Below, one piece after another: positions 24,261 through 38,138 of a DNA stretch of 64,000 bases (within the stretch, counting starts at the first letter, position 1; the number at the start of each line of letters is the position of its first letter). The position numbers were made by a program, and so were the translations under genes. This DNA comes from Bacteroidaceae bacterium (GTDB lineage: Bacteria; Bacteroidota; Bacteroidia; Bacteroidales; Bacteroidaceae): the NCBI GenBank assembly GCA_045613565.1, contig JAZLBF010000035.1, forward strand, positions 1,373-65,372, in the 5' to 3' direction. A model generated the notes under the pieces. That model worked only from the letters and a program-made list of their open reading frames with translations, made no database searches and was not told where the DNA came from.

Positions 24261-26225
24261 ATGAAACTATCTTCCTGGGGTAAAAAAATATTAACATTTA
24301 TTGTGTTGATACAGGTAAGTTTTGCTTCGTTTGCTGCAGACGACCTCTTTCGTCAGGCTAGAGTGATGCAACACGATGGAAAATATGATGAAGCCATCGA
24401 AGCCTTTAAAAATTACCTTGTACAACCCGTTGCTGAGGAAGCGATGAACGATGATGTGCAAGCTATGTACATTGAGGCACTCTTGCAGATGATGAATACG
24501 TTTCAAAGTAAGGGAGCGCCAGATGCGTGCATTCCTTTCATGCAGGAGGCTTTCAATTCGTCACCTGTGCTCCAGAAGTATTGTCAGAGAGATTACTATT
24601 CTATACTAGGTTATGCTCTCTCTCGCACCGAAGATATGAAGCGAGCAGAGGAGACGATGCTCAAGGCACTGACCATGCCTTTGCATCATCCTACTCCACA
24701 GCGATATTTCCGTGACTATGCATACGCTGCGGCAGTGTTTTATAGCAATCCTGATTATCTGGACGAGGTAATTAACTGGTGCGAAGAGGCAATGAAGGAG
24801 GCGGATTTATGCAAAAATACCTCAGGTAAGCAATGGGTAACTGCTATGCTAGGCTCTTTGTATAAGAGAAAGGGTAGTCTCAACAAGGCTTTGGTTCTCT
24901 TTCAGCAGAGCAAGGAAGAATCCATGTTGAGAAATGATACTTTGGGTGTATTAAATAGCCTTCACTCCTTGATAGACCTCTTCCTCTACTGGGATATACC
25001 CGAATATGCCAATGTATATGCCTCTGAAGCTATACGAGTGGAGCAGAGTCTGAAGACAAACAATCCTATGGTGTCTGCACAAACCTATATCAATAAGGCA
25101 CGAGCCTTATATCAACTAGGTAAGGCTGATTCTACTCTCATCTATGTGGAGGAGGCTCGCAAGCGATGCCAATCTTTGCCCTACAATAGTGGTATGGTAG
25201 ATGTGAACTTGCTACATGGTACTCTGCTGACAGAGCTGGGAGGGGATACTATATATAAAGGTATAGAAGAATTGCAGATAGTAGCCCATCAAGCTACCTC
25301 CATCAATCGTGCAAAGGCTTACCACCAGTTGGCGCAAACATATTTGAAAGGTGCAGATAATCGCAAGGCAGAGGCGATGCTGGATAGTATGTACTATTTG
25401 CTCAATCAAGGAGGATCGCCCACCTTTATTCGTGTTGACTATCAACTCATACTCCGCTACTACTTGAAAAAGAAAAATCAAGCGAAGGCAGAGCAGTATC
25501 TGAGCATGATGCTAGAAGAGCAACAAGCGTTTAAGGAAAAGAAGTTGAACTACAATTTAGTGGAATACATAGTAAATCTACAGACCGAGAAAAAGAGACA
25601 GCAGCTGGAGATTTTGCATCTAGCGTATGCCAATGAGCGTCTCTGGCTCCTCGTTAGCATAGTCTTCTCACTTGTGGCTGTTTTTGTTATCGTATTATTG
25701 TTTGTAAAATACAGGAAGCACTATAAATTTCAGATAAGACAGGCAGACGAAAAACTATCGGCATTGCTTGAGAAGTTGAACCAGTCCAATGCTGAGAAGG
25801 AAATGAGGGCTCAGGAAATCAAGGAATTCTTGAGCGATAGGGACAATCACGAAGAATTCGAAGTACTTACCCCAACGCTACTTCAGACGGAGGGAGAATC
25901 AAAGTTCCGCCAATGTTTTGAGTTGCTTTATCCCCTCTTCCTCCCTCGTTTGCGTGACAGGATACCATCTGTTACCCGTCGTGAGGAGCTGTTGTCCATG
26001 CTCATCGTCTTGAAGCAAGATAACAAGAGGATAGCAGACTTGATGGCCATAGCTCCACGAAGCGTTTTGATGCTTCGTCATCGCTTCCGTCAAAAGATAG
26101 GAATGGCAACAGAGTATTCGCTAGACAATTTTATAGAAGACATTCTGTCCTCTGAAAATGCTCCAACTACCGCAACTGAGTCTGATGTGCCTTCACAAAC
26201 GGAAGAAAAGACCTCGCAGGTGTAA
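24261..26225 (+). CDS. TPR-repeat membrane-anchored regulator with C-terminal helix-turn-helix-like domain
   Basis: Signal peptide, long TPR-like region, one TM helix (LWLLVSIVFSLVAVFVIVLLFV), a coiled coil, and a C-terminal …REELLSMLIVLKQDNKRIADLMAIAPRSVLMLRHRFRQKIG resembling an HTH. Confidence 0.65.
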   Translation: MKLSSWGKKILTFIVLIQVSFASFAADDLFRQARVMQHDGKYDEAIEAFKNYLVQPVAEEAMNDDVQAMYIEALLQMMNTFQSKGAPDACIPFMQEAFNSSPVLQKYCQRDYYSILGYALSRTEDMKRAEETMLKALTMPLHHPTPQRYFRDYAYAAAVFYSNPDYLDEVINWCEEAMKEADLCKNTSGKQWVTAMLGSLYKRKGSLNKALVLFQQSKEESMLRNDTLGVLNSLHSLIDLFLYWDIPEYANVYASEAIRVEQSLKTNNPMVSAQTYINKARALYQLGKADSTLIYVEEARKRCQSLPYNSGMVDVNLLHGTLLTELGGDTIYKGIEELQIVAHQATSINRAKAYHQLAQTYLKGADNRKAEAMLDSMYYLLNQGGSPTFIRVDYQLILRYYLKKKNQAKAEQYLSMMLEEQQAFKEKKLNYNLVEYIVNLQTEKKRQQLEILHLAYANERLWLLVSIVFSLVAVFVIVLLFVKYRKHYKFQIRQADEKLSALLEKLNQSNAEKEMRAQEIKEFLSDRDNHEEFEVLTPTLLQTEGESKFRQCFELLYPLFLPRLRDRIPSVTRREELLSMLIVLKQDNKRIADLMAIAPRSVLMLRHRFRQKIGMATEYSLDNFIEDILSSENAPTTATESDVPSQTEEKTSQV

Positions 26226-26257: not shown

Positions 26258-26735
26258 CAATCCATTTTCATAGACCGTTGAAGTCTGTTTGTAGTATTAC
26301 AAACGCATTTCCGCAGATTGTTGAAGTCCCGTTGTAGTATTATAAACGCATTTCCGCAGACTGTTGAAGTCCCGTTGTAGCTTTACAAACGCATTTCCGC
26401 AGATTGTTGAAGTCTATTTGTAGTATTACAAACGTACTCCGCAGACTGTTAAAGTCCCGTTGTAGTATTACAAACGTACTCCGCAGACTGTTGAAGTCCC
26501 GTTGTAGTATTACAAACGCATTTCCGCAGACTGTTGAAGTCTGTTTGTAGTACTACAAACGCATTTCCGCAGACTGCTGAAGTCTGTTTGTTGTACTACA
26601 AACGCATTTCCGCAGACTGTTGAAGTCTGTTTGTAGCATTACAAACGCATTTCCGCAGACTGTTGAAGTCTGTTTGTAGTATTACAAACGCATTTCCGCA
26701 GACTGTTGAAGTCTATTTGTAGTACTACAAACGTC
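26258..26735. repeat. Tandem array, 43-bp period, about 11 copies (unit AAACGCATTTCCGCAGACTGTTGAAGTCTGTTTGTAGTATTAC)
   Basis: Period measured from AAACGCA at 26301 and 26344. Each unit junction forms the hairpin GTTTGTA-n4-TACAAAC. Two sub-variants are mixed (GTCCCGTTGTAG / GTCTGTTTGTAG; CGCATTTCC / CGTACTCC). Confidence 0.95.
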
Positions 26736-26856: not shown

Positions 26857-27181
26857 CTCGCGCCGAAAATGTCCTTTGTGGCATGGGTGGGCGTGGGGCA
26901 AGACATAATAAAGGCGTTTACTACGCTTTGGTTTTGACGGTTAGAAACTTCGCAAACTTCCAATCGTGGTCAAAAACAAAGCAACGTGAATGTCCTTCGT
27001 GGGTATGTTATACGCATTCCCCTATTGTACATTGACAGCCAAGGGCATGTGGTCAATTACAATAGTGGATTATATACACATATCGGCGTGGGGCTTCAGC
27101 GTTGCTCGTTTCGACTACGATGGGCAATGCGAAGGCCTCTAACCGTGAAGCGAGCAACAGTGCAGGGCTTCACGCTTTTTT
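26857..27181 (+). ncRNA. Candidate structured non-coding RNA of ~325 nt, unidentified family
   Basis: Bounded by the promoter box at 26843 and an intrinsic terminator at 27144-27181. No protein-like ORF. Internal helices include TTTTGAC…GTCAAAA, and GTTGCTCG (27101) pairing with CGAGCAAC (27151). Confidence 0.4.
27144..27181 (+). terminator. Intrinsic terminator CGTGAAGC-n15-GCTTCACG followed by CTTTTTT
   Basis: 8-bp GC-rich stem plus T-run, read directly. Confidence 0.65.
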
Positions 27182-27330
27182 GTATCTAATTAGAGATTCG
27201 GAATTAGAGTCGAGCCAATAGAGTAGCATATAAATATAGTTACAGTAAATTGGACTATACTCGTCTATTATTAATTTATGTCTATAGAAATTGAGTAAAC
27301 ATAATTCTAAATAGTAGATTTTCTAATTCA

Positions 27331-28581
27331 ATGAAACGAAGTACACTATTACCATTCTTAGGGTTATTCATTATTAGTTGTAGTAGTGATATTAATTCTA
27401 TTCAGGACCCACATTTTACTGATGAAGGGTATTACATTAATGATACTACCCAGCAAGAACTAATTATTGAACAACCTAGTTCGATTAAATTTTATGTAGA
27501 GGTATCTGGCTCTATGAATGGTTTCTTTAGAGCAAACAAACCCACATATTTCAAAACCGATGTTTGGCAAATACTAAGTTATTACGCACCAATTGCCCCA
27601 GAGATAACCGTTTTGACTAATAGTGGCAATAGCGGAGCCACGTTAGATACAAATAGATTCCAAAACGAAATGAACACAGGAGCCTTTGTTTCACAGGCAT
27701 CTACAAAAGTTCCAGTTATGATTGAAACAATAACATCTAACCTGAATATAGAACAAGGAGAAGTTGCAGTTCTCATATCTGATATGAAGTATAGTCCCGT
27801 CGGTTCTGCTGCACCTGCAGTATTATCCGCACAGTATAGCACAGACATTAGTAGGATTTTAGGAAAATATAATAATGCGGTAAGTATGATTTGCGCAACC
27901 TCAAATTATCTAGCTGCAAATGGAAATGAAATCTGTCAGCGTTCACCATATTATTATGTAATTTTTGGAAACCCTAGTCAAGTAATAAACGTTAGGAATT
28001 GCATTTCAACATTACTTCAAGATAGAGGACACTTTGTTGATAACATAGAAAGCGGTATAAATTACGGTAAGCAAACATATTCATTTGGTTCTCCTATTTT
28101 ATGCGAACAATTAGACTGCGAACCAACATTCATAAACTACGAGGAACCAAATGAAGAATATGGAGATACTTGTACGATAAAACTTAGAATTGATTTGACT
28201 AAGTATCGCTGGATATTAGAAAACGAAAGTATTCTCAGGAATTCGCTAAACATTCAATCTATCTATGGTTCCGATATAGAAATAGGCAAAATATCATATG
28301 AAATAGATACGAAAAAAGACAAGGAACTTAAGCGAGAAGCTATAGCTACTGTAGAAATTAAAGTATATAATTTAGCAATAGACATGGATGTCCTCAAGTG
28401 GAACATTACTCTTCCTGATACAAACTACACTCTCTTCTACGAATTCTTTGATGGAGCAAACGATGAAAATGATGTAACTAAATCTTATTCTGTACAAGAT
28501 TTCATAAAAGGCATGTTCTACGGTGGTATTGTAAATACTCAACCATCAACTAATTATATATTGATTTCTAAAAACTACTAA
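27331..28581 (+). CDS. Lipoprotein with vWA-like N-terminal domain (system gene A)
   Basis: Lipobox FIISC. FYVEVSGSMNGF (27490-27525) resembles the MIDAS beta-strand/DxSGS motif with E in place of D. A later VAVLISDM strand is present. Confidence 0.6.
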   Translation: MKRSTLLPFLGLFIISCSSDINSIQDPHFTDEGYYINDTTQQELIIEQPSSIKFYVEVSGSMNGFFRANKPTYFKTDVWQILSYYAPIAPEITVLTNSGNSGATLDTNRFQNEMNTGAFVSQASTKVPVMIETITSNLNIEQGEVAVLISDMKYSPVGSAAPAVLSAQYSTDISRILGKYNNAVSMICATSNYLAANGNEICQRSPYYYVIFGNPSQVINVRNCISTLLQDRGHFVDNIESGINYGKQTYSFGSPILCEQLDCEPTFINYEEPNEEYGDTCTIKLRIDLTKYRWILENESILRNSLNIQSIYGSDIEIGKISYEIDTKKDKELKREAIATVEIKVYNLAIDMDVLKWNITLPDTNYTLFYEFFDGANDENDVTKSYSVQDFIKGMFYGGIVNTQPSTNYILISKNY

Positions 28582-28584
28582 TAT

Positions 28585-29031
28585 ATGAAAGGTGTTATTA
28601 AACTTTACGAATGGATTGCGGGCAATATGTCCGACTTTACTAAACAGTTTGAAGGAAATGAAAATCTTCAATCACAAGCAAGGAGTTTTTGGAGAAGCCT
28701 TGACAATTACTCTATTGTTAGTGTATTGATATTTGTAATAATAGCAATTGGTGTGGCCACTATGTATTACAAACCTTTTAACAATAAGCCAGGCAGACAT
28801 TACCTACCTAAATATTGGTTTATGTTTTGGTTAGTCTCATTTATTGTTTCATTGTTAGTGACATTTGGTCTTGAATATATTTGTTGTGAACCAAAATTAA
28901 ATGGTGCAACTCTTATCGAGTTTAAGATAGCATTAGCAAATGCTATATATACTGCATTGTTATTCTTATTTATATCAATAATTTGGTGTAATATTTTACC
29001 TACTAACGCTTATAGAATTTTCAAAATATAA
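28585..29031 (+). CDS. Small integral membrane protein, about 3 TM helices (system gene B)
   Basis: Hydrophobic segments IVSVLIFVIIAIGVATMYY, WFMFWLVSFIVSLLVTFGL and ALLFLFISIIWCNIL. 3-nt gap from gene A. Confidence 0.6.
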   Translation: MKGVIKLYEWIAGNMSDFTKQFEGNENLQSQARSFWRSLDNYSIVSVLIFVIIAIGVATMYYKPFNNKPGRHYLPKYWFMFWLVSFIVSLLVTFGLEYICCEPKLNGATLIEFKIALANAIYTALLFLFISIIWCNILPTNAYRIFKI

Positions 29032-29033
29032 TT

Positions 29034-30437
29034 ATGAAAAAGGTTTTTGTCTTTTGCATTGGAGGTACGGGCATTAGAGTAATGAAAAGCATTACTATGC
29101 TAATGGCTGGAGGTATGGATACCAATGGGTATATTGTTGTACCTATTATCCTCGACCCTCACTTGGATTTAGAAGAGAAAAAGAATCTTCATACACTTAT
29201 TGATAGCTATAGAACTATATATGAAAAATCTGTTGAAAACGGTTCTTCTAGGCTAAACCATTTAGAAGGTTTCTTTAATTCTGAAATCCGCACTATTTCA
29301 GACCTAAATAATACCACAAATGACACTCAACAGGTAGTTGGAAGTAACGAAAAATTTAGCCAGTACATTAATTTATCTAATATTGGGGCTAATAATATAA
29401 ATAATCACCTAGTATCTACTTTGTTTTCATCAAAGAACCTGAATAATCCATTGTCTGTAGGCTTTAAAGGAAATCCCAATATGGGAAGCGTAGTCTTGGG
29501 CAATATGATTGAGGGAGCTGATTGGTTTAAATCCTTTAAACAGCATTGCGAACAAGGAGACCGAGTTTTTATAATTAGTTCTATTTTTGGTGGAACTGGC
29601 GCATCTGGTTATCCTCTTTTAGAAAAAAAAATTAGGTTTGCTCAAAATGAACCTGCTGTAAAGAATGCTCTTATGGGAGCTGTTTCTGTCCTTCCATATT
29701 ATGGATTGAAAGACCCAGCGACTACAGGTAGTGACATAGATTCAGCAAATTTCTATACAAAGACTAAAGCCGCATTAGCATATTATCATGGTAATGTAAA
29801 ATCTGATTACTTATATTACATCGGAGAAAAACGCTTGATGCAGGTATATGAGAATGATGAAAGGAAACAGGACGACAAAGCCAATTTCGTTGAGCTTATT
29901 GCTGCTTCGGCTCTATTTGATTTCTTAAAAAGAGAAAAGCCAGATAGACAACAATTCTTAACTAGAGCTATTGAAGAAGACAAAGAATCACTTGACCTAA
30001 ATTCATTAGGCCGAGGATACAAAGATGTTATAAAAAGCGTCGCAGATTTCATGTTGTTACGAGCCATGGTTGATATTCTTCCTAGAGAGAAATATTTCCC
30101 ACTGATAAAAACATACAAGTTTGATGAAAAATTCTATAAAGATTCTGCTTTTGATTCACTTAGTCGATTTTCAAACATATACAACAATTGGTATTCAGAA
30201 TTAGCCACAAATAAGCGTGCATTTGCACCCTTACATCATGATAACTTAAAACAAATGAAAGGGTGGATTAAGGGAATGGTTTTAGATGCTCCTGACGATT
30301 CATATTATTTACTCAAAATGATTCAGGCAAGTAACCATAATTCAGTCGAAAAAGAGCACAACAATACTTTTAGGTTCTTCATGCAATTTGCACATGAAGC
30401 AATTAATTATTATACTAGTAAATTAAATAAACAATAA
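29034..30437 (+). CDS. Tubulin/FtsZ-superfamily-like GTPase (system gene C)
   Basis: N-terminal VFVFCIGGTGIRV (compare FtsZ IKVIGVGGGGGNAV). DRVFIISSIFGGTGASGYPLL (GGTGASG at 29589-29609) is near the tubulin signature [SAG]GGTG[SA]G and FtsZ DMVFITAGMGGGTGTGAAPV. Confidence 0.7.
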   Translation: MKKVFVFCIGGTGIRVMKSITMLMAGGMDTNGYIVVPIILDPHLDLEEKKNLHTLIDSYRTIYEKSVENGSSRLNHLEGFFNSEIRTISDLNNTTNDTQQVVGSNEKFSQYINLSNIGANNINNHLVSTLFSSKNLNNPLSVGFKGNPNMGSVVLGNMIEGADWFKSFKQHCEQGDRVFIISSIFGGTGASGYPLLEKKIRFAQNEPAVKNALMGAVSVLPYYGLKDPATTGSDIDSANFYTKTKAALAYYHGNVKSDYLYYIGEKRLMQVYENDERKQDDKANFVELIAASALFDFLKREKPDRQQFLTRAIEEDKESLDLNSLGRGYKDVIKSVADFMLLRAMVDILPREKYFPLIKTYKFDEKFYKDSAFDSLSRFSNIYNNWYSELATNKRAFAPLHHDNLKQMKGWIKGMVLDAPDDSYYLLKMIQASNHNSVEKEHNNTFRFFMQFAHEAINYYTSKLNKQ

Positions 30438-30438
30438 T

Positions 30439-33400
30439 ATGGGACGAATTGACCTTAATATAGTGGACCGTGGAATACAAGGTACAGATTGGATTGCAGA
30501 GGACATTGGCTTGACCACAGAGCATCTTGATAAGGTTATGGAAATGAAGACAGACAACAGTGGAGCCTTAAATTCATTACCTACACCTTTCGCACGCTTC
30601 TTTGTAGCCAAAGAAGCATTTAGGCGCGCAATGGAAGAGTATCTTGATAACAAAAAAGAAGCAGGTTTCGCTTATAAGCAACTAGTATCTGATATACTAG
30701 ATGTATATGAAATCCTGTTTAATCTCAAGTACCATACTAATAACACATGGAAAAACGGAGAAGGCATAGAACTTCGTGAATGGGATAGCGTAGGAAATCT
30801 CACATATTTAAAACAACAAATGCCAGTATTGTATAATTCGCTTAATGAATATTATAATACTGACATTAAACAAGAGAAATTATATTTTCTTGTCTACACA
30901 GAAGAAGGAAAAGACATTTTATTAGCATGTAGTTCTCCAATTACGGGTTTTGTAACACCGCCAGATTTAGACAAATCAATTGTTAAGAGAAACGGAGCTA
31001 CTGAATACGTGTTTGCAGGAGAACAATACAACGACCTCAACATTCAGCGAAAATCAGGAGGATTTTATTTCCAGGATATAAAAATGTTTGAAGAAAGAGA
31101 CCAAGATTTCAAAAACTATATGTTTAATGTACTTTTTGGCTCTGATGAAGTTAGCGAATCGTTTAAACCCTTAAAAGATTATATTCGAAGTTTTAAGAAT
31201 GACAAAGAAATTCGCAACGACTATAAGATAAAGTTGACTCCAGTAAAAACTGACCAGAATGCCAATTTGATTATCAACCAATTAGCCATTCTTTCTTGTA
31301 ACGAAATTGATATCAACAGTTATTTCAATAACACAATCATAAAAATACCGTATCGAATTTCTCGAAAAAAATTTGAGGCAGTTAAATATAAAAACGATGA
31401 CCCAAATAGAGAATATGATTTCTTATTCCCATTTAAACCTGAAGTACTAAATCTATTCAATAATAATGATATTGACTCCTATATAAATGTCAATAGAACT
31501 TCGGTGACTGTATACCTAAATTATAATGGCAAAGAGTATCATAAAGAATATTCTACTAATCCAACCAATAATCAGGGAAAAATCTATGAACTAAATGTCG
31601 CAAATATAAACTTTAATCTAGGAATATTCCCCAATATATTGTCATATCAAGAATCAGAAAATAATTACTTCAAGATTTTTGTATCTGCTGCGGATGAAGA
31701 CACAGAGGCCCCTAATTTCAGTATAGATAATCTTAGCCTCACTTTTTACAAAAGTAATGGTTCTAGCATTTATCTAATTAAGGAAATTGACCCGACAAAT
31801 GCAGAATTTGGCGTGCTCCCTGCTGTTGTACGCTCAAAACAAGTGAAGAATGGTATAGAATGTGGAACTAAGTTTTACGAATTATTCAATAGCTCCTTTG
31901 ATATTATAAATATCACATTATTTAACCAACATTCTGGTTTCATCATTCCTAAATGGGATAGAAGTATTGCAACCTCAGAACAATTTACATATGCGGTAGA
32001 CCTAGGAACATCTAATACGTTTATCTCACGTTGTAAAATTGGAGATAATAATAAGCCTGAGTTATTCAAGATGGAACAACCAATGGTTAGTTATCTTCAC
32101 GAAATTCCGGAAGACCAACAACTCTCATTGGTTAAACGTATTGAAAATTCTATTTTTGATAGAGCAAAGAATAAAGTTAAAACGGAGTTTGTTCCTGCGA
32201 TAATAGACGGAAAAGATTATAAATTTCCAATTCGCACTGCTCTCTGCGGTATAAAAAACAAATCACAAGCCCCAAAACTGTTTGATAATCACAACATTGC
32301 ATTCTTCTATGAAAAATCAATGTCCAATGATGACCAAGATGTTCATACAGACATTAAGTGGGACAAGAATGACTCTATGTTAAGGGTCTTTATCCGTGAA
32401 CTTTTACTGATTATAAAATGTGATGTTCTACAAAGAAATGGTGATTTAGATAGAACATCTCTAGTTTGGTTTAAACCCTTGAGTTTCATGGGTAATACCA
32501 GAAGTATGTATATTGATATTTGGAACGAAGAAGCCAGAAATATTCTTGCAATAAGTTCTGACAAAATACAATGTTTCTCAGAATCAGAAGCTCCTTATTA
32601 TTACTTTAAGAGGATGGATTACATTAAGGATTCTGATGCGGCTGCTGTCATAGACATAGGTGGCGGCTCAACAGATTTTGTTTACTTCCAAGATAATAAT
32701 CCTATCGTTGCCAATTCTGTTCATTTCGGCTGTGATGTTCTTTGGGGAAATGGGCTTATCGAATTTGAAGATGTACGTCAGAATGGTATATACAAAAAAT
32801 ATGAAAACACAATTAGATTCAGCAAAGAAGGACTACAAGAACTAAATGATTGCTTTATCAACGTGGATAATTCCACAACAAAGGATATAATAAATTTCTG
32901 GTTAAGCAATTCAAATTATTGTGACATCAAGAAAAGTCTAAGCAACGATTTCAAACCTGTATTTGTTTATCACTTAACGTCTATTTTATTCTATATGGCA
33001 AATATGCTAAAAGAATATAGTTATACGGCACCTCGAACAATCGTCTTCAGTGGAAATGGTAGTAGATATATAGATGATTTTATCTGTTCCGACAAGAGAA
33101 TTCTTAAGAAAATAATTGACCAAGTATTTGAGCAGGTATTTGGAGCGGATAATAACGTGCACGTTGTTCTACCAAGTGAACGTAAGGAATCTACATGCTA
33201 TGGAGGATTATACAGAGGTGCTAATGCAGAAGATGTACCAGAAAAGGTATACCAAGGTGATATAAGTTATAGTTATAAGACTGTAGGTGATATTAACAAT
33301 AATTTTGAACATATCAAATCAGTATTAATTTCTAAATATAATGAGCTAGGACGCTTGTATAAAGATATTCTTGAACTACTGAAAACTGAACGTATTATTG

Positions 33401-33582
33401 ATAATACAGATAACACCAGTGTCTATGTTGAGAAATCATTAGAAGACATGGGAGTAGACCTCTCAACCTATTATAAATCACAAATAAAAGAAAAATACCA
33501 AGAAGAAATCCCTCTCTATGAATCGATATTCTTTTTGCCTATTATAAAAAAAGTTTTTGAACTGACAAACCTGAAGCAATGA
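30439..33582 (+). CDS. 1047-aa protein: unknown N-terminal half plus C-terminal actin/Hsp70-fold (ASKHA) ATPase (system gene D)
   Basis: Phosphate-1 motif AVDLGTSNT (31999-32019), phosphate-2 motif VIDIGGGSTD (32653-32676) and adenosine-like motif IVFSGNGSRYI (33046-33066), in the canonical order and spacing. Confidence 0.7.
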   Translation: MGRIDLNIVDRGIQGTDWIAEDIGLTTEHLDKVMEMKTDNSGALNSLPTPFARFFVAKEAFRRAMEEYLDNKKEAGFAYKQLVSDILDVYEILFNLKYHTNNTWKNGEGIELREWDSVGNLTYLKQQMPVLYNSLNEYYNTDIKQEKLYFLVYTEEGKDILLACSSPITGFVTPPDLDKSIVKRNGATEYVFAGEQYNDLNIQRKSGGFYFQDIKMFEERDQDFKNYMFNVLFGSDEVSESFKPLKDYIRSFKNDKEIRNDYKIKLTPVKTDQNANLIINQLAILSCNEIDINSYFNNTIIKIPYRISRKKFEAVKYKNDDPNREYDFLFPFKPEVLNLFNNNDIDSYINVNRTSVTVYLNYNGKEYHKEYSTNPTNNQGKIYELNVANINFNLGIFPNILSYQESENNYFKIFVSAADEDTEAPNFSIDNLSLTFYKSNGSSIYLIKEIDPTNAEFGVLPAVVRSKQVKNGIECGTKFYELFNSSFDIINITLFNQHSGFIIPKWDRSIATSEQFTYAVDLGTSNTFISRCKIGDNNKPELFKMEQPMVSYLHEIPEDQQLSLVKRIENSIFDRAKNKVKTEFVPAIIDGKDYKFPIRTALCGIKNKSQAPKLFDNHNIAFFYEKSMSNDDQDVHTDIKWDKNDSMLRVFIRELLLIIKCDVLQRNGDLDRTSLVWFKPLSFMGNTRSMYIDIWNEEARNILAISSDKIQCFSESEAPYYYFKRMDYIKDSDAAAVIDIGGGSTDFVYFQDNNPIVANSVHFGCDVLWGNGLIEFEDVRQNGIYKKYENTIRFSKEGLQELNDCFINVDNSTTKDIINFWLSNSNYCDIKKSLSNDFKPVFVYHLTSILFYMANMLKEYSYTAPRTIVFSGNGSRYIDDFICSDKRILKKIIDQVFEQVFGADNNVHVVLPSERKESTCYGGLYRGANAEDVPEKVYQGDISYSYKTVGDINNNFEHIKSVLISKYNELGRLYKDILELLKTERIIDNTDNTSVYVEKSLEDMGVDLSTYYKSQIKEKYQEEIPLYESIFFLPIIKKVFELTNLKQ

Positions 33583-35201
33583 GTATAAGCATAATTATTT
33601 CTATCGTTACATCTACGCTATTTATTAGCGCACAATATTACTTTTTTAGAGATACCAGAAAATATAGGATACTATTTCAAAACTTCTTCAAAAAAGTAAA
33701 ACCCTACTCTATTTCTAGACAAAGGGAAGGGAGCATTTATGATGACGAGCCTAATACATGTGATTACGTACAACTAGAACTTGTTGGCACCGAAGAATCT
33801 GATTTAAATAACCTAATCCGAGAAATAAATAATTATATCTTAAAAACAAAAGGAACTACAGATTTCTCTGTAATTCAAAATAAGGTGGAACGCAAACTGA
33901 ACATGAGGTATGACCAGTCTACTGCTAGATTATCCTTCCCTACCTATTTTGGATTATTAGGAACATTCTTTGGAGTATTCATCGGTATTTCATCATTTGT
34001 TTTAGAGTTCGATAGTAGCAATATTACAGACGATGCAATTATTGGACTTCTCGCCGGTGTACTAGTTTCTATGATAACTAGTTTATGTGGTTTGGGGTTT
34101 ACTACATATAATAACTTTCATTCTGGTGGCGCAAGGAAACAAATTGAAGAGGATAAGAATGAGTTTTATGATTTCATCCAAACGGAATTAATGCCTACTA
34201 TTGATGTAAGCATGGTGGCAGCAATCACAAAACTTCATGATACTGTAGACAAATTCGAACCTGCATTTGAACGTGTAATAAATAAATTTCAAACTACTTT
34301 CGACAAGTGCACTGATGCATTTGGTAAAAATTTTGAAAAGAATGTTTCGATTGTCACTGATGCTGTTGATATTATGGGTAGAAACATGGATAAAATCAAC
34401 CATAATATTAATTTACAAGAGAATTTATTGTCGACACTCAAGAGCGGAGAACTTATAGATGGCATGGAAAAATATATCCAAGCAGCAAATCACTTTGGTG
34501 GCATAACGCAATCTCTGAATAAGTTTGAAGAAGCAAGAAGAATGATGTTAGCTGCAACACAAGAAACTATTACAATGCAACAACAATACTCCGAGTCGTT
34601 AAAGATTCCTCGTGAAACAGCAATTAAAATTAATCAAATTCTTGACAGAATAAAAACATTTGAAAATAATATAAATATACTCGGAGAGCAAATTGCACAG
34701 CGAGAAATTTTAGGAAATGAAATTATTAATATCATAAAATCTCAGGTAGATGGTATTGCTAAAAAGGGCAAAATTGCTGACAAATATCTAGGAGTGGCTG
34801 ATGGAAAGCTAGAAGATTTATTTAAAAAGCAATCAGAAGTAATTGATTCTATGAACCATAAATATGGTTCTGCATTAGAAAAACATTTAATTGGATTTGA
34901 AAAGATTTTGGAAGACCACGAAAAGGAAATTATTTCTCGCCGAAATGCCTTCATGGCTGCAATTGAAAACAAGTTATCTATAGAAGATGTCCACCAAGAT
35001 TTCTCCAATCTCAAAAAGTTAAATGACATTAATAAAAATCTATCGGAAATAGCATCTACTTCTATTAAACTTGAAAATTTACATGACGAGATAAAATTAC
35101 TTCAATCTGAATTTACTCAGATAAGAGAGAGTATCGACAATTTAAATAAAGTGAAAGAAGAAGCTAAAAGTAGATGGAATATCTTTGGAGGAGGTAAGTA
35201 A
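33579..35201 (+). CDS. MotA/ExbB/TolQ-like membrane protein with ~340-aa coiled-coil C-terminal tail, a ZorA-like architecture (system gene E)
   Basis: YFGLLGTFFGVFIG (GLLGT at 33951-33965) and GLLAGVLVSMITSLCGLGFTTYNNF match the two conserved TM helices of ExbB/TolQ (…GLLGTV.G… / …T..GL…YN.F). The rest is heptad-rich and charged. Its ATG overlaps the gene D stop (ATGA). Confidence 0.7.
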   Translation: MSISIIISIVTSTLFISAQYYFFRDTRKYRILFQNFFKKVKPYSISRQREGSIYDDEPNTCDYVQLELVGTEESDLNNLIREINNYILKTKGTTDFSVIQNKVERKLNMRYDQSTARLSFPTYFGLLGTFFGVFIGISSFVLEFDSSNITDDAIIGLLAGVLVSMITSLCGLGFTTYNNFHSGGARKQIEEDKNEFYDFIQTELMPTIDVSMVAAITKLHDTVDKFEPAFERVINKFQTTFDKCTDAFGKNFEKNVSIVTDAVDIMGRNMDKINHNINLQENLLSTLKSGELIDGMEKYIQAANHFGGITQSLNKFEEARRMMLAATQETITMQQQYSESLKIPRETAIKINQILDRIKTFENNINILGEQIAQREILGNEIINIIKSQVDGIAKKGKIADKYLGVADGKLEDLFKKQSEVIDSMNHKYGSALEKHLIGFEKILEDHEKEIISRRNAFMAAIENKLSIEDVHQDFSNLKKLNDINKNLSEIASTSIKLENLHDEIKLLQSEFTQIRESIDNLNKVKEEAKSRWNIFGGGK

Positions 35202-35203
35202 CT

Positions 35204-36010
35204 ATGGATGGTAAAAGTAATGGTTCCTTTTGGCCAAGCTACGTAGATATAATGACGACATTATTTGCCATTATGCTCGTTTTATTTGTAGTATCCTTCT
35301 GTCGATTTAAAGTTAAGGAAAAAGAGCAACAAGAAACAATGGATATGCTACAAGCACTTGTTGACGAATATGAAAACATAATCACGGTATATTCAACAGT
35401 GGGTTCTATTGATTCAACTAAATATTTTGGATACGATGAAACATACCTAAAGCACCTGTTTACAGTCGACGTTGAGTATCAAACTCAAGGTTATCGTATT
35501 GCAGACCAATTAAAACTTGACAACATAGATAAGAATGCTGCAAACGAAAAACGCAGTGACATTCTAGCTGCAGGTAATCTCATCAAAGAGACTATACTAA
35601 AACTAGAAAACAATGAATCTATTGATAATAACATTAAGTTTCTTGTAGTTATTGAAGGTCAGGCCTCTAGAGTTAGATTTAATGACGGAGATTGGTACAA
35701 CAACTATACACTATCCTACCTAAGAGCTAGATTTATTAATGATTATTGGAAACAAAACGGAATTAATCTTGACGAAATTCCTCGATGTGAGCTTATAATC
35801 TCTGGAAGTGGTGAAGGTGGAGTACCAAGAATCATCCCTGATGAACATGCGCTGCATATGAAGTATCCAGACCCAATAGACTATAATAAAAATTGGATTG
35901 CAACAGAAGAAAAAAATCAACGTTTTCTTATTCATATAGTACCCGTTATTGGAAACATTGATGTAACAAAAGATAAAATTGAACAAATCAAGTCTCACAC
36001 AAACAAATAA
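35204..36010 (+). CDS. MotB/OmpA-like protein, ZorB-like (system gene F)
   Basis: N-terminal FWPSYVDIMTTLFAIMLVLFVV matches the MotB TM/plug (W..YADFMTAMMAFFL), including the conserved Asp (35246-35248). The C-terminal VVIEGQASRV…NNYTLSYLRA is a divergent OmpA_C-like peptidoglycan-binding pattern. Confidence 0.7.
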   Translation: MDGKSNGSFWPSYVDIMTTLFAIMLVLFVVSFCRFKVKEKEQQETMDMLQALVDEYENIITVYSTVGSIDSTKYFGYDETYLKHLFTVDVEYQTQGYRIADQLKLDNIDKNAANEKRSDILAAGNLIKETILKLENNESIDNNIKFLVVIEGQASRVRFNDGDWYNNYTLSYLRARFINDYWKQNGINLDEIPRCELIISGSGEGGVPRIIPDEHALHMKYPDPIDYNKNWIATEEKNQRFLIHIVPVIGNIDVTKDKIEQIKSHTNK

Positions 36011-36034
36011 TTGTCACATGATTATATTTTGAAA

Positions 36035-36562
36035 ATGGATGACAAATTTAACTTATTTATAGATGATAGTTCGTATATTGATTTTCGTCAGTCAATCATA
36101 GACTCTCCCGTCTTAACATATGACAAAAGTAAACTTCCTTTTGAAAATATCTTTTATCCCCCCAAAAAATATCCTACGCAACTTAAGAATATCGTAAAAT
36201 CATTAATACCAGTACACTATTATTTAAATAGGCATTTGTTTTATCTCAACAAGAAAGGAATCTGTCGAGCACATGGATATTATATTCCTGAAACAAAAAG
36301 GTTTGTAATATGCATGGGAAGTCTTCTATGTACATCGGTGAATAGCGAATATGAAAAAAGTAATTCAGGAAGTTTACGTGCATATCATATACAACATGCA
36401 TGTGAAAAATATCCAAATTATTATGTAGTTAAAAAAAATATAATATGTCTTTCTCCAACATCTGCGGCTTCATATGTTTTAGGCAGAGTAGCTCGATATA
36501 CTGATTGGAAAGATGAAAACGGAGATACTTTAGACAAGTTTTACGCATATAAATTCGTATAG
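36035..36562 (+). CDS. DUF4357-like protein (system gene G)
   Basis: …RAHGYYIPETKRFVICMGSLL…LSPTSAASYVLGRVARYTDWKDENGDTLDKFY resembles the DUF4357 pattern (…V.kGS…SPSaAA..vlGr..NG…WK…G.tL), from memory. The ATG at 36035 is preferred over the TTG at 36011. Confidence 0.5.
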   Translation: MDDKFNLFIDDSSYIDFRQSIIDSPVLTYDKSKLPFENIFYPPKKYPTQLKNIVKSLIPVHYYLNRHLFYLNKKGICRAHGYYIPETKRFVICMGSLLCTSVNSEYEKSNSGSLRAYHIQHACEKYPNYYVVKKNIICLSPTSAASYVLGRVARYTDWKDENGDTLDKFYAYKFV

Positions 36563-36637: not shown

Positions 36638-36673
36638 AAATCTCCGTGAGGGAATAGCCCTTCACGGAGATTT
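36638..36673. terminator. Bidirectional hairpin AAATCTCCGTGA-n12-TCACGGAGATTT between convergent genes
   Basis: 12-bp perfect stem flanked by A-run and T-run, read directly. Confidence 0.7.
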
Positions 36674-36705: not shown

Positions 36706-37944
36706 CTAATTCAGGAGGTAATCAAATACATTCATCATTATAATGCCATTGGGAGTAGTATGCGTTGGTATGTCATCTGTTGTAATAATAATTTTTATAA
36801 ATGAGTCGTCCGTAAGGGTTAGTGAGCGTTGCTCCTGCTTCTGTTTATCTTCGTCAGGTAAAGAATAAGCTGATTGTATATATACTCTTTCACTACCTTT
36901 ATTACAAACGAAATCTATTTCGAGTGTAGCTCTAGTGGTCTTACCTTCATCATCTTTTTGATAGGATGTAACGCATCCCACATCCACTTTATAACCATTA
37001 CCTATCAGATGGTTATATATAATATTCTCCATAATATGGGTAGGCTCCACTTGACGGAAATTCAAAAGTGCATTACGCAACCCAAGGTCAGCAAAATAAT
37101 ATTTATATGGAGTGTCTATATACGTCTTTCCTTTAATGTCATAGCGGACCGCTTTAGCAATAAGGAATGAGTCTATGAAATAGTCTATATAAGTTTTTAC
37201 TGTATTATGGCTTATTTTCACCTTTTTCTCACTAACAAATGTGTTTGCTAGTTTGTTTGGATTAGTTAATGCTCCAATATTTGATGCCAAGAGGCTGAAT
37301 AATTCTTCTAATTCCGCATCATTTTTTACATTATTACGGTTGATTATATCACTTAAATAAGTCTCTTTTAGCAAATCCTGGAGTATTTCTGCTTTTCGCG
37401 CCTTGTCCTTCTCCATGACTACCATTGGTAGACCTCCGTAATAAATGTAATCTCGCCACAATGAAGAGGTTTCCTCATCTGACTTTTCTTTTATTTCCTT
37501 AAACGACAGCGGTTGAAGATGGATCTGAGCTCCGCGTCCTCTGAACTCAGTAACAATATCTGAAGAAAGGAATTTCGCATTACTTCCAGTTATATATACA
37601 TCTAGATTCTCTATACGCAGGAAACCATTAAGCACATCAACAAAACTCTCCAACATCTGGACTTCATCAATCATCACATAATACATCTGTGAATCTTGCT
37701 TTGTCTGATTTTCGACATATTCATATAGAGTTTCTGCACTACGATATTTACGGTGTACAAATGAGTCAAGTTGTAATTCAATGATATGACTAGCATCAAC
37801 ACCATTATCTAAAAGATGTTGCTTATAAAGGTTGAATAGAAGATACGATTTACCAACGCGACGTAACCCAGTAACAATCTTTATCAAATGATTATGCTTG
37901 CTACTTATCAACTTATCAATATAAAGTTGTCTTTCGAATTTCAT
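36706..37944 (-). CDS. AAA-family ATPase with DUF4143-type C-terminal domain
   Basis: N-terminal …KIVTGLRRVGKSYLL (P-loop-like), DEVQ Walker-B-like motif, and overall organisation typical of the widespread Bacteroidota 'ATP-binding protein/DUF4143' family. Confidence 0.75.
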   Translation of the reverse strand: MKFERQLYIDKLISSKHNHLIKIVTGLRRVGKSYLLFNLYKQHLLDNGVDASHIIELQLDSFVHRKYRSAETLYEYVENQTKQDSQMYYVMIDEVQMLESFVDVLNGFLRIENLDVYITGSNAKFLSSDIVTEFRGRGAQIHLQPLSFKEIKEKSDEETSSLWRDYIYYGGLPMVVMEKDKARKAEILQDLLKETYLSDIINRNNVKNDAELEELFSLLASNIGALTNPNKLANTFVSEKKVKISHNTVKTYIDYFIDSFLIAKAVRYDIKGKTYIDTPYKYYFADLGLRNALLNFRQVEPTHIMENIIYNHLIGNGYKVDVGCVTSYQKDDEGKTTRATLEIDFVCNKGSERVYIQSAYSLPDEDKQKQEQRSLTLTDDSFIKIIITTDDIPTHTTPNGIIMMNVFDYLLN

Positions 37945-37947
37945 ATA

Positions 37948-38138
37948 GAGACAATTTTTGTGTATTTACACACTTTTCGTCTACAAAGATAGTTATTTAA
38001 TCATGAAATAGCCTTAACACTGGAGACAATTTCTGTGTATTTACACACTTTTTGTCAATAGAGATAGTTATTTTATCATAAAATAGCCTTAACCCTGGAG
38101 ACAATTTCTGTGTATTTACACACTTTTTGTCAATAGAG
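37948..38138. repeat. 75-bp tandem repeat, about 2.5 copies; each copy carries a minus-strand TATCTTTG promoter box and the palindrome TGTGTAttTACACA
   Basis: Unit starts (GAGACAAT) are at 37948, 38023 and 38098. The array begins 4 nt upstream of the AAA ATPase start codon. Confidence 0.9.

Follow-up and report, generated by a model that had tools for sequence, protein, structure and literature searches.

What does a tubulin-like protein do in a bacterial operon that holds no genes for cell division? Proteins of the tubulin and actin superfamilies are normally regarded as cytoskeletal polymers. The question is raised by a gene, here called g3, in a stretch of 64,000 nucleotides from a Bacteroidaceae bacterium (assembly GCA_045613565.1, contig JAZLBF010000035.1, positions 1,373 to 65,372), referred to below as the window. 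Our analysis indicates that the product of g3 almost certainly has a tubulin fold, and it places the gene in a conserved multi-gene envelope system of Bacteroidota with an invariant core of four genes, g1 to g4. The features of g3 on which this characterization builds are the following.

29034..30437, forward strand: g3, divergent tubulin/FtsZ-superfamily GTPase-domain protein of 467 amino acids (aa), intact open reading frame (ORF)
29055..29078, forward strand: T1-like loop, residues 8-15 (CIGGTGIR), with G10, G11, G13 and R15 invariant
29460..29486, forward strand: T3-like loop, residues 143-151 (GFKGNPNMG), with G143, G146, P148 and G151 invariant
29577..29615, forward strand: T4 signature loop, residues 182-194 (SSIFGGTGASGYP), placed by alignment
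29886..29927, forward strand: helix assigned as H7, residues 285-298, placed by its position after S6
29931..30434, forward strand: C-terminal all-helical domain, residues ~300-467, placed by the AlphaFold2 model

A divergent tubulin-like domain in g3

A sequence-only reading of the window had likened residues 4-13 (VFVFCIGGTG) and 176-196 (DRVFIISSIFGGTGASGYPLL) to the T1 and T4 loops of FtsZ. The same residues stand out in an alignment of 98 g3 relatives at ~30-50% identity, from which all statements on invariance in g3 are taken: beyond the T1 positions listed above, S183, F185, G186-G189, G192 and P194 of T4 do not vary. That reading had also seen the tubulin signature missed by a single inserted residue, and this is indeed so, as GGTGASG carries one residue more than [SAG]GGTG[SA]G and escapes the strict PROSITE-type pattern. 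What it had overlooked is a further tubulin motif, the T3-like loop, which aligns with GAGANPEVG of Escherichia coli FtsZ (FtsZ pattern GAGANPxxG). P221 and Y222 of a T5-like loop are likewise invariant. Across the family, the patterns GIGGTGxR (T1), GFKGNPNxG (T3) and FGGTGASG (T4) follow each other in the order of tubulins, and the match to tubulin/FtsZ lies far beyond chance.

Profile and structure comparisons point in the same direction. Scanned individually, 88 of the 98 relatives match the tubulin/FtsZ GTPase family PF00091 at E<=0.01 (best 5e-7), and 84 match PF13809 at the same threshold (best 8e-8); searched against PDB sequences, the family profile finds FtsZ or CetZ in 21 of 21 matches. 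An AlphaFold2 model of g3, built with the alignment of the 98 relatives, reaches a predicted local distance difference test score (pLDDT) of 92.5 and a predicted template-modelling score (pTM) of 0.94. With this model, Foldseek yields 212 PDB matches (E<=1e-3), and each of the 50 listed is an alpha/beta-tubulin or an FtsZ, with probability 1.00 over ~295-335 aligned columns, and in the viral structure library BFVD the top matches are phage tubulins/PhuZ. The sequence-only reading, which had assigned g3 to the tubulin/FtsZ superfamily and allowed for searches that would find no profile or structure match to this fold, is thus borne out on the first count by the fold of the model, the PF00091 matches of the relatives and the FtsZ/CetZ matches of the profile; as to the second, such matches are plentiful.

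In the model, g3 keeps the nucleotide-binding half of the fold, comprising strands S1-S6, the T1, T3, T4 and T5 loops and H7, with an insert of ~70 residues between H2 and T3. Helix 285-298 is taken as H7 because of the order of secondary-structure elements; the conserved residues Q279, N281, H284 and E287 precede or enter it, Q279 and E287 being invariant. The Foldseek alignments end at ~300 columns. Past residue 300 the model consists of helices only, with W386 and E389 nearly invariant in this part, and no FtsZ_C/Tubulin_C beta-sheet domain is found in it; among the 98 relatives, no T7-type acidic residue is conserved past E287 except E389, which lies inside a helix. The C-terminal activation domain and the T7 loop are thus, as modelled, replaced by a family-specific helical domain. 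The earlier remark that the part downstream of T4 does not resemble the FtsZ C-terminal domain fits a model that is all-helical after H7 and a family without a conserved T7 acid.

An operon with an actin-fold partner and a ZorAB-like motor

Seven ORFs run in the same direction, with g3 in third place and junctions of 3, 2, 1, -4, 2 and 0 nt between them, and this seven-gene string is a translationally coupled operon:

27331..28581, forward strand: g1, lipoprotein of 416 aa, first gene of the operon, with the lipobox LFIISC and an invariant Cys17
28585..29031, forward strand: g2, inner-membrane protein of 148 aa with 3 predicted transmembrane (TM) helices
30439..33582, forward strand: g4, protein of 1,047 aa with a C-terminal actin/MreB/Hsp70 (ASKHA) ATPase fold
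33579..35201, forward strand: g5, ZorA-like protein of 540 aa with 3 TM helices and the MotA/ExbB channel signature FGLLGTFFGVFIG
35204..36010, forward strand: g6, ZorB/MotB-like protein of 268 aa with a single TM helix containing Asp15 (SYVDIMT) and an OmpA-like peptidoglycan-binding domain
36011..36562, forward strand: g7, DUF4357 protein of 183 aa in a variable slot, with a 0-nt gap to g6
36638..36673, forward strand: terminator-like hairpin with a 15-bp stem, the only strong one, between g7 and the convergent ATPase gene
36706-37944, reverse strand: AAA_14/DUF4143 ATPase gene, convergent to the operon and adjoining g7

The sequence-only reading had described g3 as lying outside any cell-division context and had seen no division-and-cell-wall (dcw) cluster or partition genes nearby. 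There are indeed none over about 17-46 kb of the window, but the description understates the case, because the gene has a conserved operon of its own, with an actin-fold giant and a ZorAB-like motor. We followed this operon through 80 loci from other species, in which the proteins are only 20-40% identical; the counts below refer to evaluable loci. The gene for g4 directly follows that for g3 in 72 of 72 loci, and one protein, P0252 (1,611 aa), is a natural g3-g4 fusion. It is therefore very probable that g3 is an obligate partner of g4 within the operon. Upstream, a positional ortholog of g2 (125-170 aa, multiple TM helices) is present in 75/80 loci, and a positional or hidden-Markov-model ortholog of g1 in 66/69. 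Downstream, a ZorA-like gene follows in at least 48 and a ZorB-like gene in at least 40 of 61 loci, both being lower bounds. We judge it probable, with a fair margin of doubt, that g3 works with this ZorAB-type motor.

The ASKHA part of g4 spans roughly residues 510-1047 (nt 31966-33579) and carries the motifs AVDLGTSNT (519-527), VIDIGGGSTD (737-746) and FSGNGS (870-875), which correspond to the phosphate-1, phosphate-2 and adenosine motifs of the Hsp70/actin type. Its AlphaFold2 model (pLDDT 85.2, pTM 0.71) gives 645 Foldseek matches at E<=1e-3, led by MreB, BeeR, ParM, actin and the nucleotide-binding domains (NBDs) of DnaK/BiP, with E-values down to 1e-8 and TMt of 0.5-0.57. The N-terminal ~500 residues are alpha plus beta-rich and have no sequence relatives in the PDB. 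With MreB, ParM, actin and the Hsp70 NBD, g4 thus shares the fold and the three motifs; unlike them, its domain is part of a protein of 1,047-1,250 aa that is always paired with a tubulin-like gene.

The MotA-type channel protein g5 has a GLLGT signature and a helical cytoplasmic tail of ~370 aa. Among the PDB matches listed for its profile, ZorA (8vvn_C, 8qyk, 8vvi; 5.5e-5 to 1e-4) is the only protein of the 5:2 ion motors. Members of the g5 family match the NCBIfam models ZorA_1-4 and MotA_ExbB, and 32 homologs give 18 matches to five NCBIfam ZorA models, all below threshold; the NCBIfam ZorA cutoff is not reached. In g6, the membrane Asp15 is nearly invariant across the family, and the profile matches type I ZorB of Shewanella over its full length (8vvn_B, 5.9e-12), E. 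coli ZorB (7e-8) and MotB (4e-4); the NCBIfam model ZorB1 is matched by 24 of 26 homologs, again always below threshold. Since no match reaches a curated cutoff, we term g5 and g6 ZorAB-like and not Zorya. In 12 of 32 ZorA-like homologs (e.g., members from L037-L080), an extra hydrophobic segment, absent in g5, stands at the extreme C-terminus of the tail, the tip of which could re-insert into or dock on the membrane in some variants. Nineteen loci have an extra conserved gene of ~370-500 aa (~440) with one TM helix and no Pfam family between the actin-fold and ZorA-like genes (e.g., L033:15137-16459, L040:14776-16074, L057:15006-16364); it is absent from the window.

The last gene of the operon varies, most often encoding a lipoprotein protease or nuclease. 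DUF4357 occupies this slot in the clade of the window, and g7, in which no signal peptide is found, matches the PADLOC candidate PDC-S14 (2e-12) without the N-terminal part of that family. Elsewhere, the ZorB-like gene is followed by a trypsin-like peptidase (Trypsin_2; 8 loci), a retropepsin-like aspartyl protease (6 loci), Endonuclease_NS (2 loci), a transglutaminase-like protein (1 locus) or a CAP domain (1 locus). All of the non-DUF4357 enzymes checked start with a lipoprotein-type signal, as does g1. The lipoprotein g1 itself has a conserved motif E57-x-S59-G-S61-M62 ... D151, which by eye resembles the metal-ion-dependent adhesion site (MIDAS) of von Willebrand factor A (vWA) domains. 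We rejected an assignment to the vWA proteins, as Pfam vWA is found in 0 of 38 members and there is no PDB sequence match.

Genomic setting and distribution

The operon lies on an island at ~27.3-38 kb with 33% GC in a region of 41-48% GC, flanked by housekeeping genes for an M13 peptidase, a class IV aminotransferase, the exonuclease VII large subunit and an RND efflux pump. This island is horizontally acquired. At its far end, directly upstream of the AAA_14/DUF4143 ATPase gene, stands a 75-nt tandem repeat (window 37948-38138; 2.5 copies, 93% match).

Relatives of g3 are numerous, with more than 3,474 matches in a collection clustered at 90% identity and at least 1,569 clusters at 50% identity (E<=1e-3), 411 of them at E<=1e-30; the median length is 484 aa. 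A scan at species level, with one genome per species, confirmed at least 570 loci among ~185,579 species genomes. The 80 loci that were kept come almost entirely from Bacteroidota, namely from Bacteroidales, Pedobacter, Mucilaginibacter, Hymenobacter, Spirosoma, Fibrella, Polaribacter, Chitinophaga and Saprospiraceae. Three bins of metagenome-assembled genomes labelled Lachnospiraceae, Escherichia coli and Acetatifactor (L002, L013 and L078) hold a Bacteroidales-type operon at 36-78% identity; these copies most likely stem from binning contamination and not from transfer across phyla. Homologs of g3 (25-76% identity) also occur on 12 IMG/VR contigs classified as viral (L083-L094), as prophage cargo or on misclassified host islands.

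The named relatives of g3, including RefSeq WP_158829317.1 and WP_157540303.1, are all 'hypothetical' or 'uncharacterized', except for one fusion that IMG calls 'Tubulin like'. As a single query, g3 itself finds nothing in PADLOC and only sub-threshold, chance-level matches in NCBIfam and PHROGs. Scores of ten relatives fall at 17-28 bits for PF00091 (cutoff 33) and 16-26 bits for PF13809 (cutoff 27), the PF13809 threshold being passed among them by the fusion P0252 only (28.2 bits).

Structured RNA and repeats upstream of g1

Between g1 and the preceding gene, the window holds a repeat array and a second conspicuous element:

26885-27190, forward strand: structured RNA-like element of ~285-300 nt, GC-rich, forming one long hairpin

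The element ends in a terminator-like stem and a T-run. In the window it folds with -139.6 kcal/mol (z=-8.6), its forward strand being 27 kcal/mol more stable than the reverse, and because of its G.U pairs we regard it as strand-specific. It recurs upstream of g1 in 15 loci. Copies stand at L003:7873-8157, L024:433-707, L059:7833-8111 and L014:10707-10962, and further ones in the metagenomic loci L095-L174. Compensatory changes are seen in 28 of 43 pairs, and 92.8% of cells are paired as compared with 77.7% in shuffles, 0 of 500 of which reach the observed values. Rfam 15 has no match for it.

Such an element might be taken for a dedicated component of the system, and this we rejected. Scanning metagenomes brought up more than 120 further copies, and the element is widespread in those of gut and rumen; 72 of 74 evaluable copies have no operon gene nearby, and the ORFs that follow the copies on the same strand, at a median distance of 72 nt, fall into 52 unrelated clusters. 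Since the metagenomic copies sit upstream of unrelated genes, the RNA is not part of the operon system; it looks like a generic leader-type element for accessory operons in Bacteroidales, possibly a new RNA class.

Just upstream of this RNA and of a Bacteroides-type -7 motif (TATATTTG, ~26845) stands a tandem array of 43-nt units (window 26272-26733; 10.8 copies, 90% match), each with two mini-hairpins (AGACTGTTGAAGTCT and GTTTGTAGTATTACAAAC); it was not found in related loci. The gene immediately upstream of the array (window 24261-26225) encodes a 654-aa protein with an N-terminal signal or TM segment, tetratricopeptide repeats, a mid-protein TM segment and a weak C-terminal LuxR/GerE-type helix-turn-helix. 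It could be a regulator.

Relation to known systems

The closest precedent for g3 and its operon is provided by the FtsZl1 systems. FtsZl1, now Pfam Tubulin_2 (PF13809), was described by Makarova and Koonin in 2010 as a tubulin-like protein in which the T6-H7, T7 and C-terminal elements are unidentifiable; the same protein also contains a coiled coil and a helical domain, its gene stands together with vWA, OmpA-like, GTPase and kinase genes, and a role in membrane remodelling was proposed (PMC2875224). In Deinococcus, the operon (DR_0540-DR_0536 / Deide_2p00760-00800) encodes a 478-aa protein, a 109-aa protein, FtsZl1 of 1,070 aa, a MotA/TolQ/ExbB protein and an OmpA protein (PMC2875224 supplementary table). 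Like FtsZl1, g3 has a strongly diverged GTPase domain of the tubulin type, with neither a T7 loop nor a C-terminal domain that can be recognised, and the two operons have a gene order in common: a protein of ~420-480 aa comes first, followed by a small one, by the tubulin-like protein and then by a MotA/TolQ/ExbB-like and an OmpA-like protein. When the D. deserti copy was compared gene by gene with its positional counterparts, g5 proved homologous to the MotA-like protein (hhalign 95.7%, E=1e-8), as did g6 to the OmpA-like partner.

There are differences as well. With 467 aa and no coiled coil, g3 is much shorter than FtsZl1 (~1,070 aa; architecture of ~900-1,100 aa with coiled coil), and hhalign of its family against FtsZl1 of the Deinococcus type aligns T4 only (E=0.014 and 0.0074, probability 3-5%), also when a shallow, 8-sequence FtsZl1 profile is used. 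The separate actin-fold protein g4 has no counterpart in the Deinococcus operon. That the 1,070-aa protein might be g3 and g4 fused was considered and discarded, since the g4 family has no match to Deinococcus FtsZl1 in hhalign. Between g1 and the first gene of that operon there is no similarity, and unlike the vWA-bearing FtsZl1 operons, g1 has no detectable vWA domain. Finally, only one fusion protein of the g3 family passes the PF13809 threshold, and the family comes almost entirely from Bacteroidota. It is a separate branch with FtsZl1-type operon logic, not a demonstrable member; and because FtsZl1/Tubulin_2 was described in 2010 (PMC2875224), g3 adds a new branch to a known kind and is not without precedent.

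For the motor, the comparison is with Zorya. Zorya anti-phage systems consist of ZorAB plus ZorC/D, ZorE or ZorF/G (PMC11946911, PMC11890865); their peptidoglycan-anchored, proton-driven ZorA5B2 motor relays the signal of phage invasion through its long tail and recruits the cytoplasmic ZorC and ZorD (PMC11946911). In g5 we find the MotA-type channel and long helical cytoplasmic tail of ZorA, in g6 the membrane Asp and peptidoglycan-binding domain of ZorB; Zorya proteins are the best solved and best named relatives of both, and the position of the operon on a horizontally acquired island adds to the likeness. Unlike in Zorya, the motor genes stand at the 3' end, their partners are the tubulin-fold and actin-fold NTPases together with a 3-TM protein and a lipoprotein, exported lipoproteins are the candidate effectors, about a fifth of the loci lack the motor, and neither NCBIfam nor PADLOC cutoffs for Zorya are reached.

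As for the tubulins proper, g3 shares with FtsZ, CetZ and tubulin (PF00091) the fold of the GTPase domain, the T1, T3, T4 and T5-like loops and an H7-like helix; it differs in lacking FtsZ_C/Tubulin_C and the T7 acid, in its T4 sequence GGTGASG, in the ~70-residue insert and in having no division context. With TubZ and PhuZ, it has in common that it is a divergent tubulin on accessory DNA whose best viral structural matches are phage tubulins/PhuZ; unlike these, it has no TubR, centromere partner, C-terminal domain or polymerisation tail, and its conserved partners are envelope proteins. A search of the available literature found nothing linking ZorAB-type motors with tubulin-like partners, nothing on DR_0538 and nothing on a similar Bacteroides system.

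Discussion

What can be discerned from these comparisons about the role of g3? We lean towards a proton-driven envelope system for conflict, in which g3 would be the subunit that acts as nucleotide switch or scaffold. In this proposal, g3 would be cytoplasmic and bind GTP, and together with g4 it would make up, on the cytoplasmic side of the membrane, a switch or scaffold governed by nucleotides. The ZorA/ZorB-like pair would act as a proton-driven 5:2 stator with a long cytoplasmic tail and a peptidoglycan anchor, and the g3-g4 complex would assemble at this tail or be recruited by it, coupling envelope events that are sensed or powered by the motor to an extracytoplasmic lipoprotein arm, via g2 and the motor. 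Alternatively, g3 could polymerise through a non-canonical interface. The system as a whole would, by analogy with Zorya, serve in inter-genomic conflict, as a defence against phages or mobile genetic elements (MGEs). A conflict-type signature is indeed seen in the low-GC island between housekeeping genes, the varying terminal gene and the known defence genes in the flanks of relatives (scattered PD-Lambda-1, AbiE, AriAB, LmuA, type III CRISPR and several PDC candidates). Resting as it does on analogy, a defence role of the operon is to our minds almost an even call, falling a little short of it. Rather unlikely, taken in all its parts, is the most specific version, an undescribed, Bacteroidota-specific, proton-driven immune system related to Zorya, in which a tubulin-fold and actin/Hsp70-fold module signals or acts in the cytoplasm and exported lipoprotein proteases or nucleases attack the invader in the periplasm.

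A number of observations weigh against this proposal, in part already at the level of the fold. Scanned alone, g3 matches PF00091 only at E=0.019 (15.7 bits, below the cutoff of 33) and has no match to PF13809 at E<=0.01; the TM-scores of its model are low (TMq 0.25-0.30, TMt up to 0.41), which is why we describe its likeness to tubulins as one at the fold level with large insertions. Likewise, single-sequence phmmer against the PDB gives FtsZ as best match at a non-significant E~1, and hhalign against single templates covers only T3-T4 in E. coli FtsZ (E=0.07) or T4 in FtsZl1. All this would suit a protein that is no tubulin homolog, with glycine-rich loops from another Rossmann-like NTPase and a merely convergent resemblance. 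Such a convergence is barely credible, as all listed structural matches in two libraries belong to the tubulin superfamily, with no other Rossmann family at high probability, as three separate loops, T1, T3 and T4, are invariant and stand in the order expected of tubulins, and as the great majority of relatives match PF00091 independently. If g3 is a tubulin homolog, might it also act as one, forming a polymer for DNA segregation like TubZ/PhuZ or for division and cell shape like FtsZ/CetZ? Its fold, the phage tubulins among the structural matches and the horizontally acquired DNA would agree with such a conventional cytoskeletal role, which we nevertheless hold to be very improbable: g3 has neither C-terminal domain nor T7 loop, its conserved partners are envelope proteins, and no TubR-like partner, centromere repeats, replication genes or dcw genes are found in the operon or its flanks. 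The same absence of T7 loop and C-terminal domain makes canonical, polymerisation-activated GTP hydrolysis by g3 doubtful.

Other observations bear on the conflict role itself. About 12 of 61 loci have no detectable ZorAB-like pair, so that the motor is not obligatory; the defence genes in the flanks are raw occurrences with no genomic background rate alongside; and none of ZorC, ZorD, ZorE, ZorF or ZorG is found in the operon, nor any PADLOC or NCBIfam match for g1-g4. The exported lipoprotein enzymes, moreover, are unlike the cytoplasmic effectors of Zorya and would equally fit a role in export or membrane remodelling. It is from here that the strongest rival takes its start, in which the operon serves housekeeping-type envelope biology, be it membrane remodelling, the formation of outer-membrane vesicles or the export and positioning of lipoproteins, much as Makarova and Koonin proposed for the FtsZl1 systems: the inner membrane would be shaped or marked by the tubulin- and actin-fold NTPases, and lipoprotein hydrolases would be delivered or activated with power from the motor. 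The lipoprotein signals of g1 and of all the variable proteases and nucleases speak for it, as do the FtsZl1 precedent with its MotA-, OmpA- and vWA-type membrane partners, the lack of a cytoplasmic nuclease effector in the operon, the many free-living Bacteroidota that carry the system (Pedobacter, Hymenobacter, Spirosoma) and the failure of PADLOC to recognise g1-g4. A housekeeping role sits poorly, however, with a low-GC island between housekeeping genes, with a distribution as patchy as the species-level scan indicates, with a swappable enzymatic last gene, which is typical of conflict systems, and with motor proteins whose nearest relatives are those of Zorya rather than the Tol, Ton or Gld motors. 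That the variable enzymes are lipoproteins agrees with both readings, and on the whole we regard the housekeeping role as unlikely, if worth keeping in view.

Thus, in the system characterized here, homologs of both cytoskeletal superfamilies are locked together, adjacent in every evaluable locus and once fused, in an accessory operon that also encodes an ion-driven motor of the Zorya type and exchangeable exported hydrolases. If our proposal is true, the idea put forward for FtsZl1 in 2010 would extend to a family that is very large and abundant among Bacteroidota of the gut and the environment, and ZorAB-type motors would have a second use outside Zorya. Thousands of proteins now called 'hypothetical' would receive a name, and gut Bacteroides and Phocaeicola would offer a tractable model for a tubulin GTPase domain that does without its polymerisation and activation domain.

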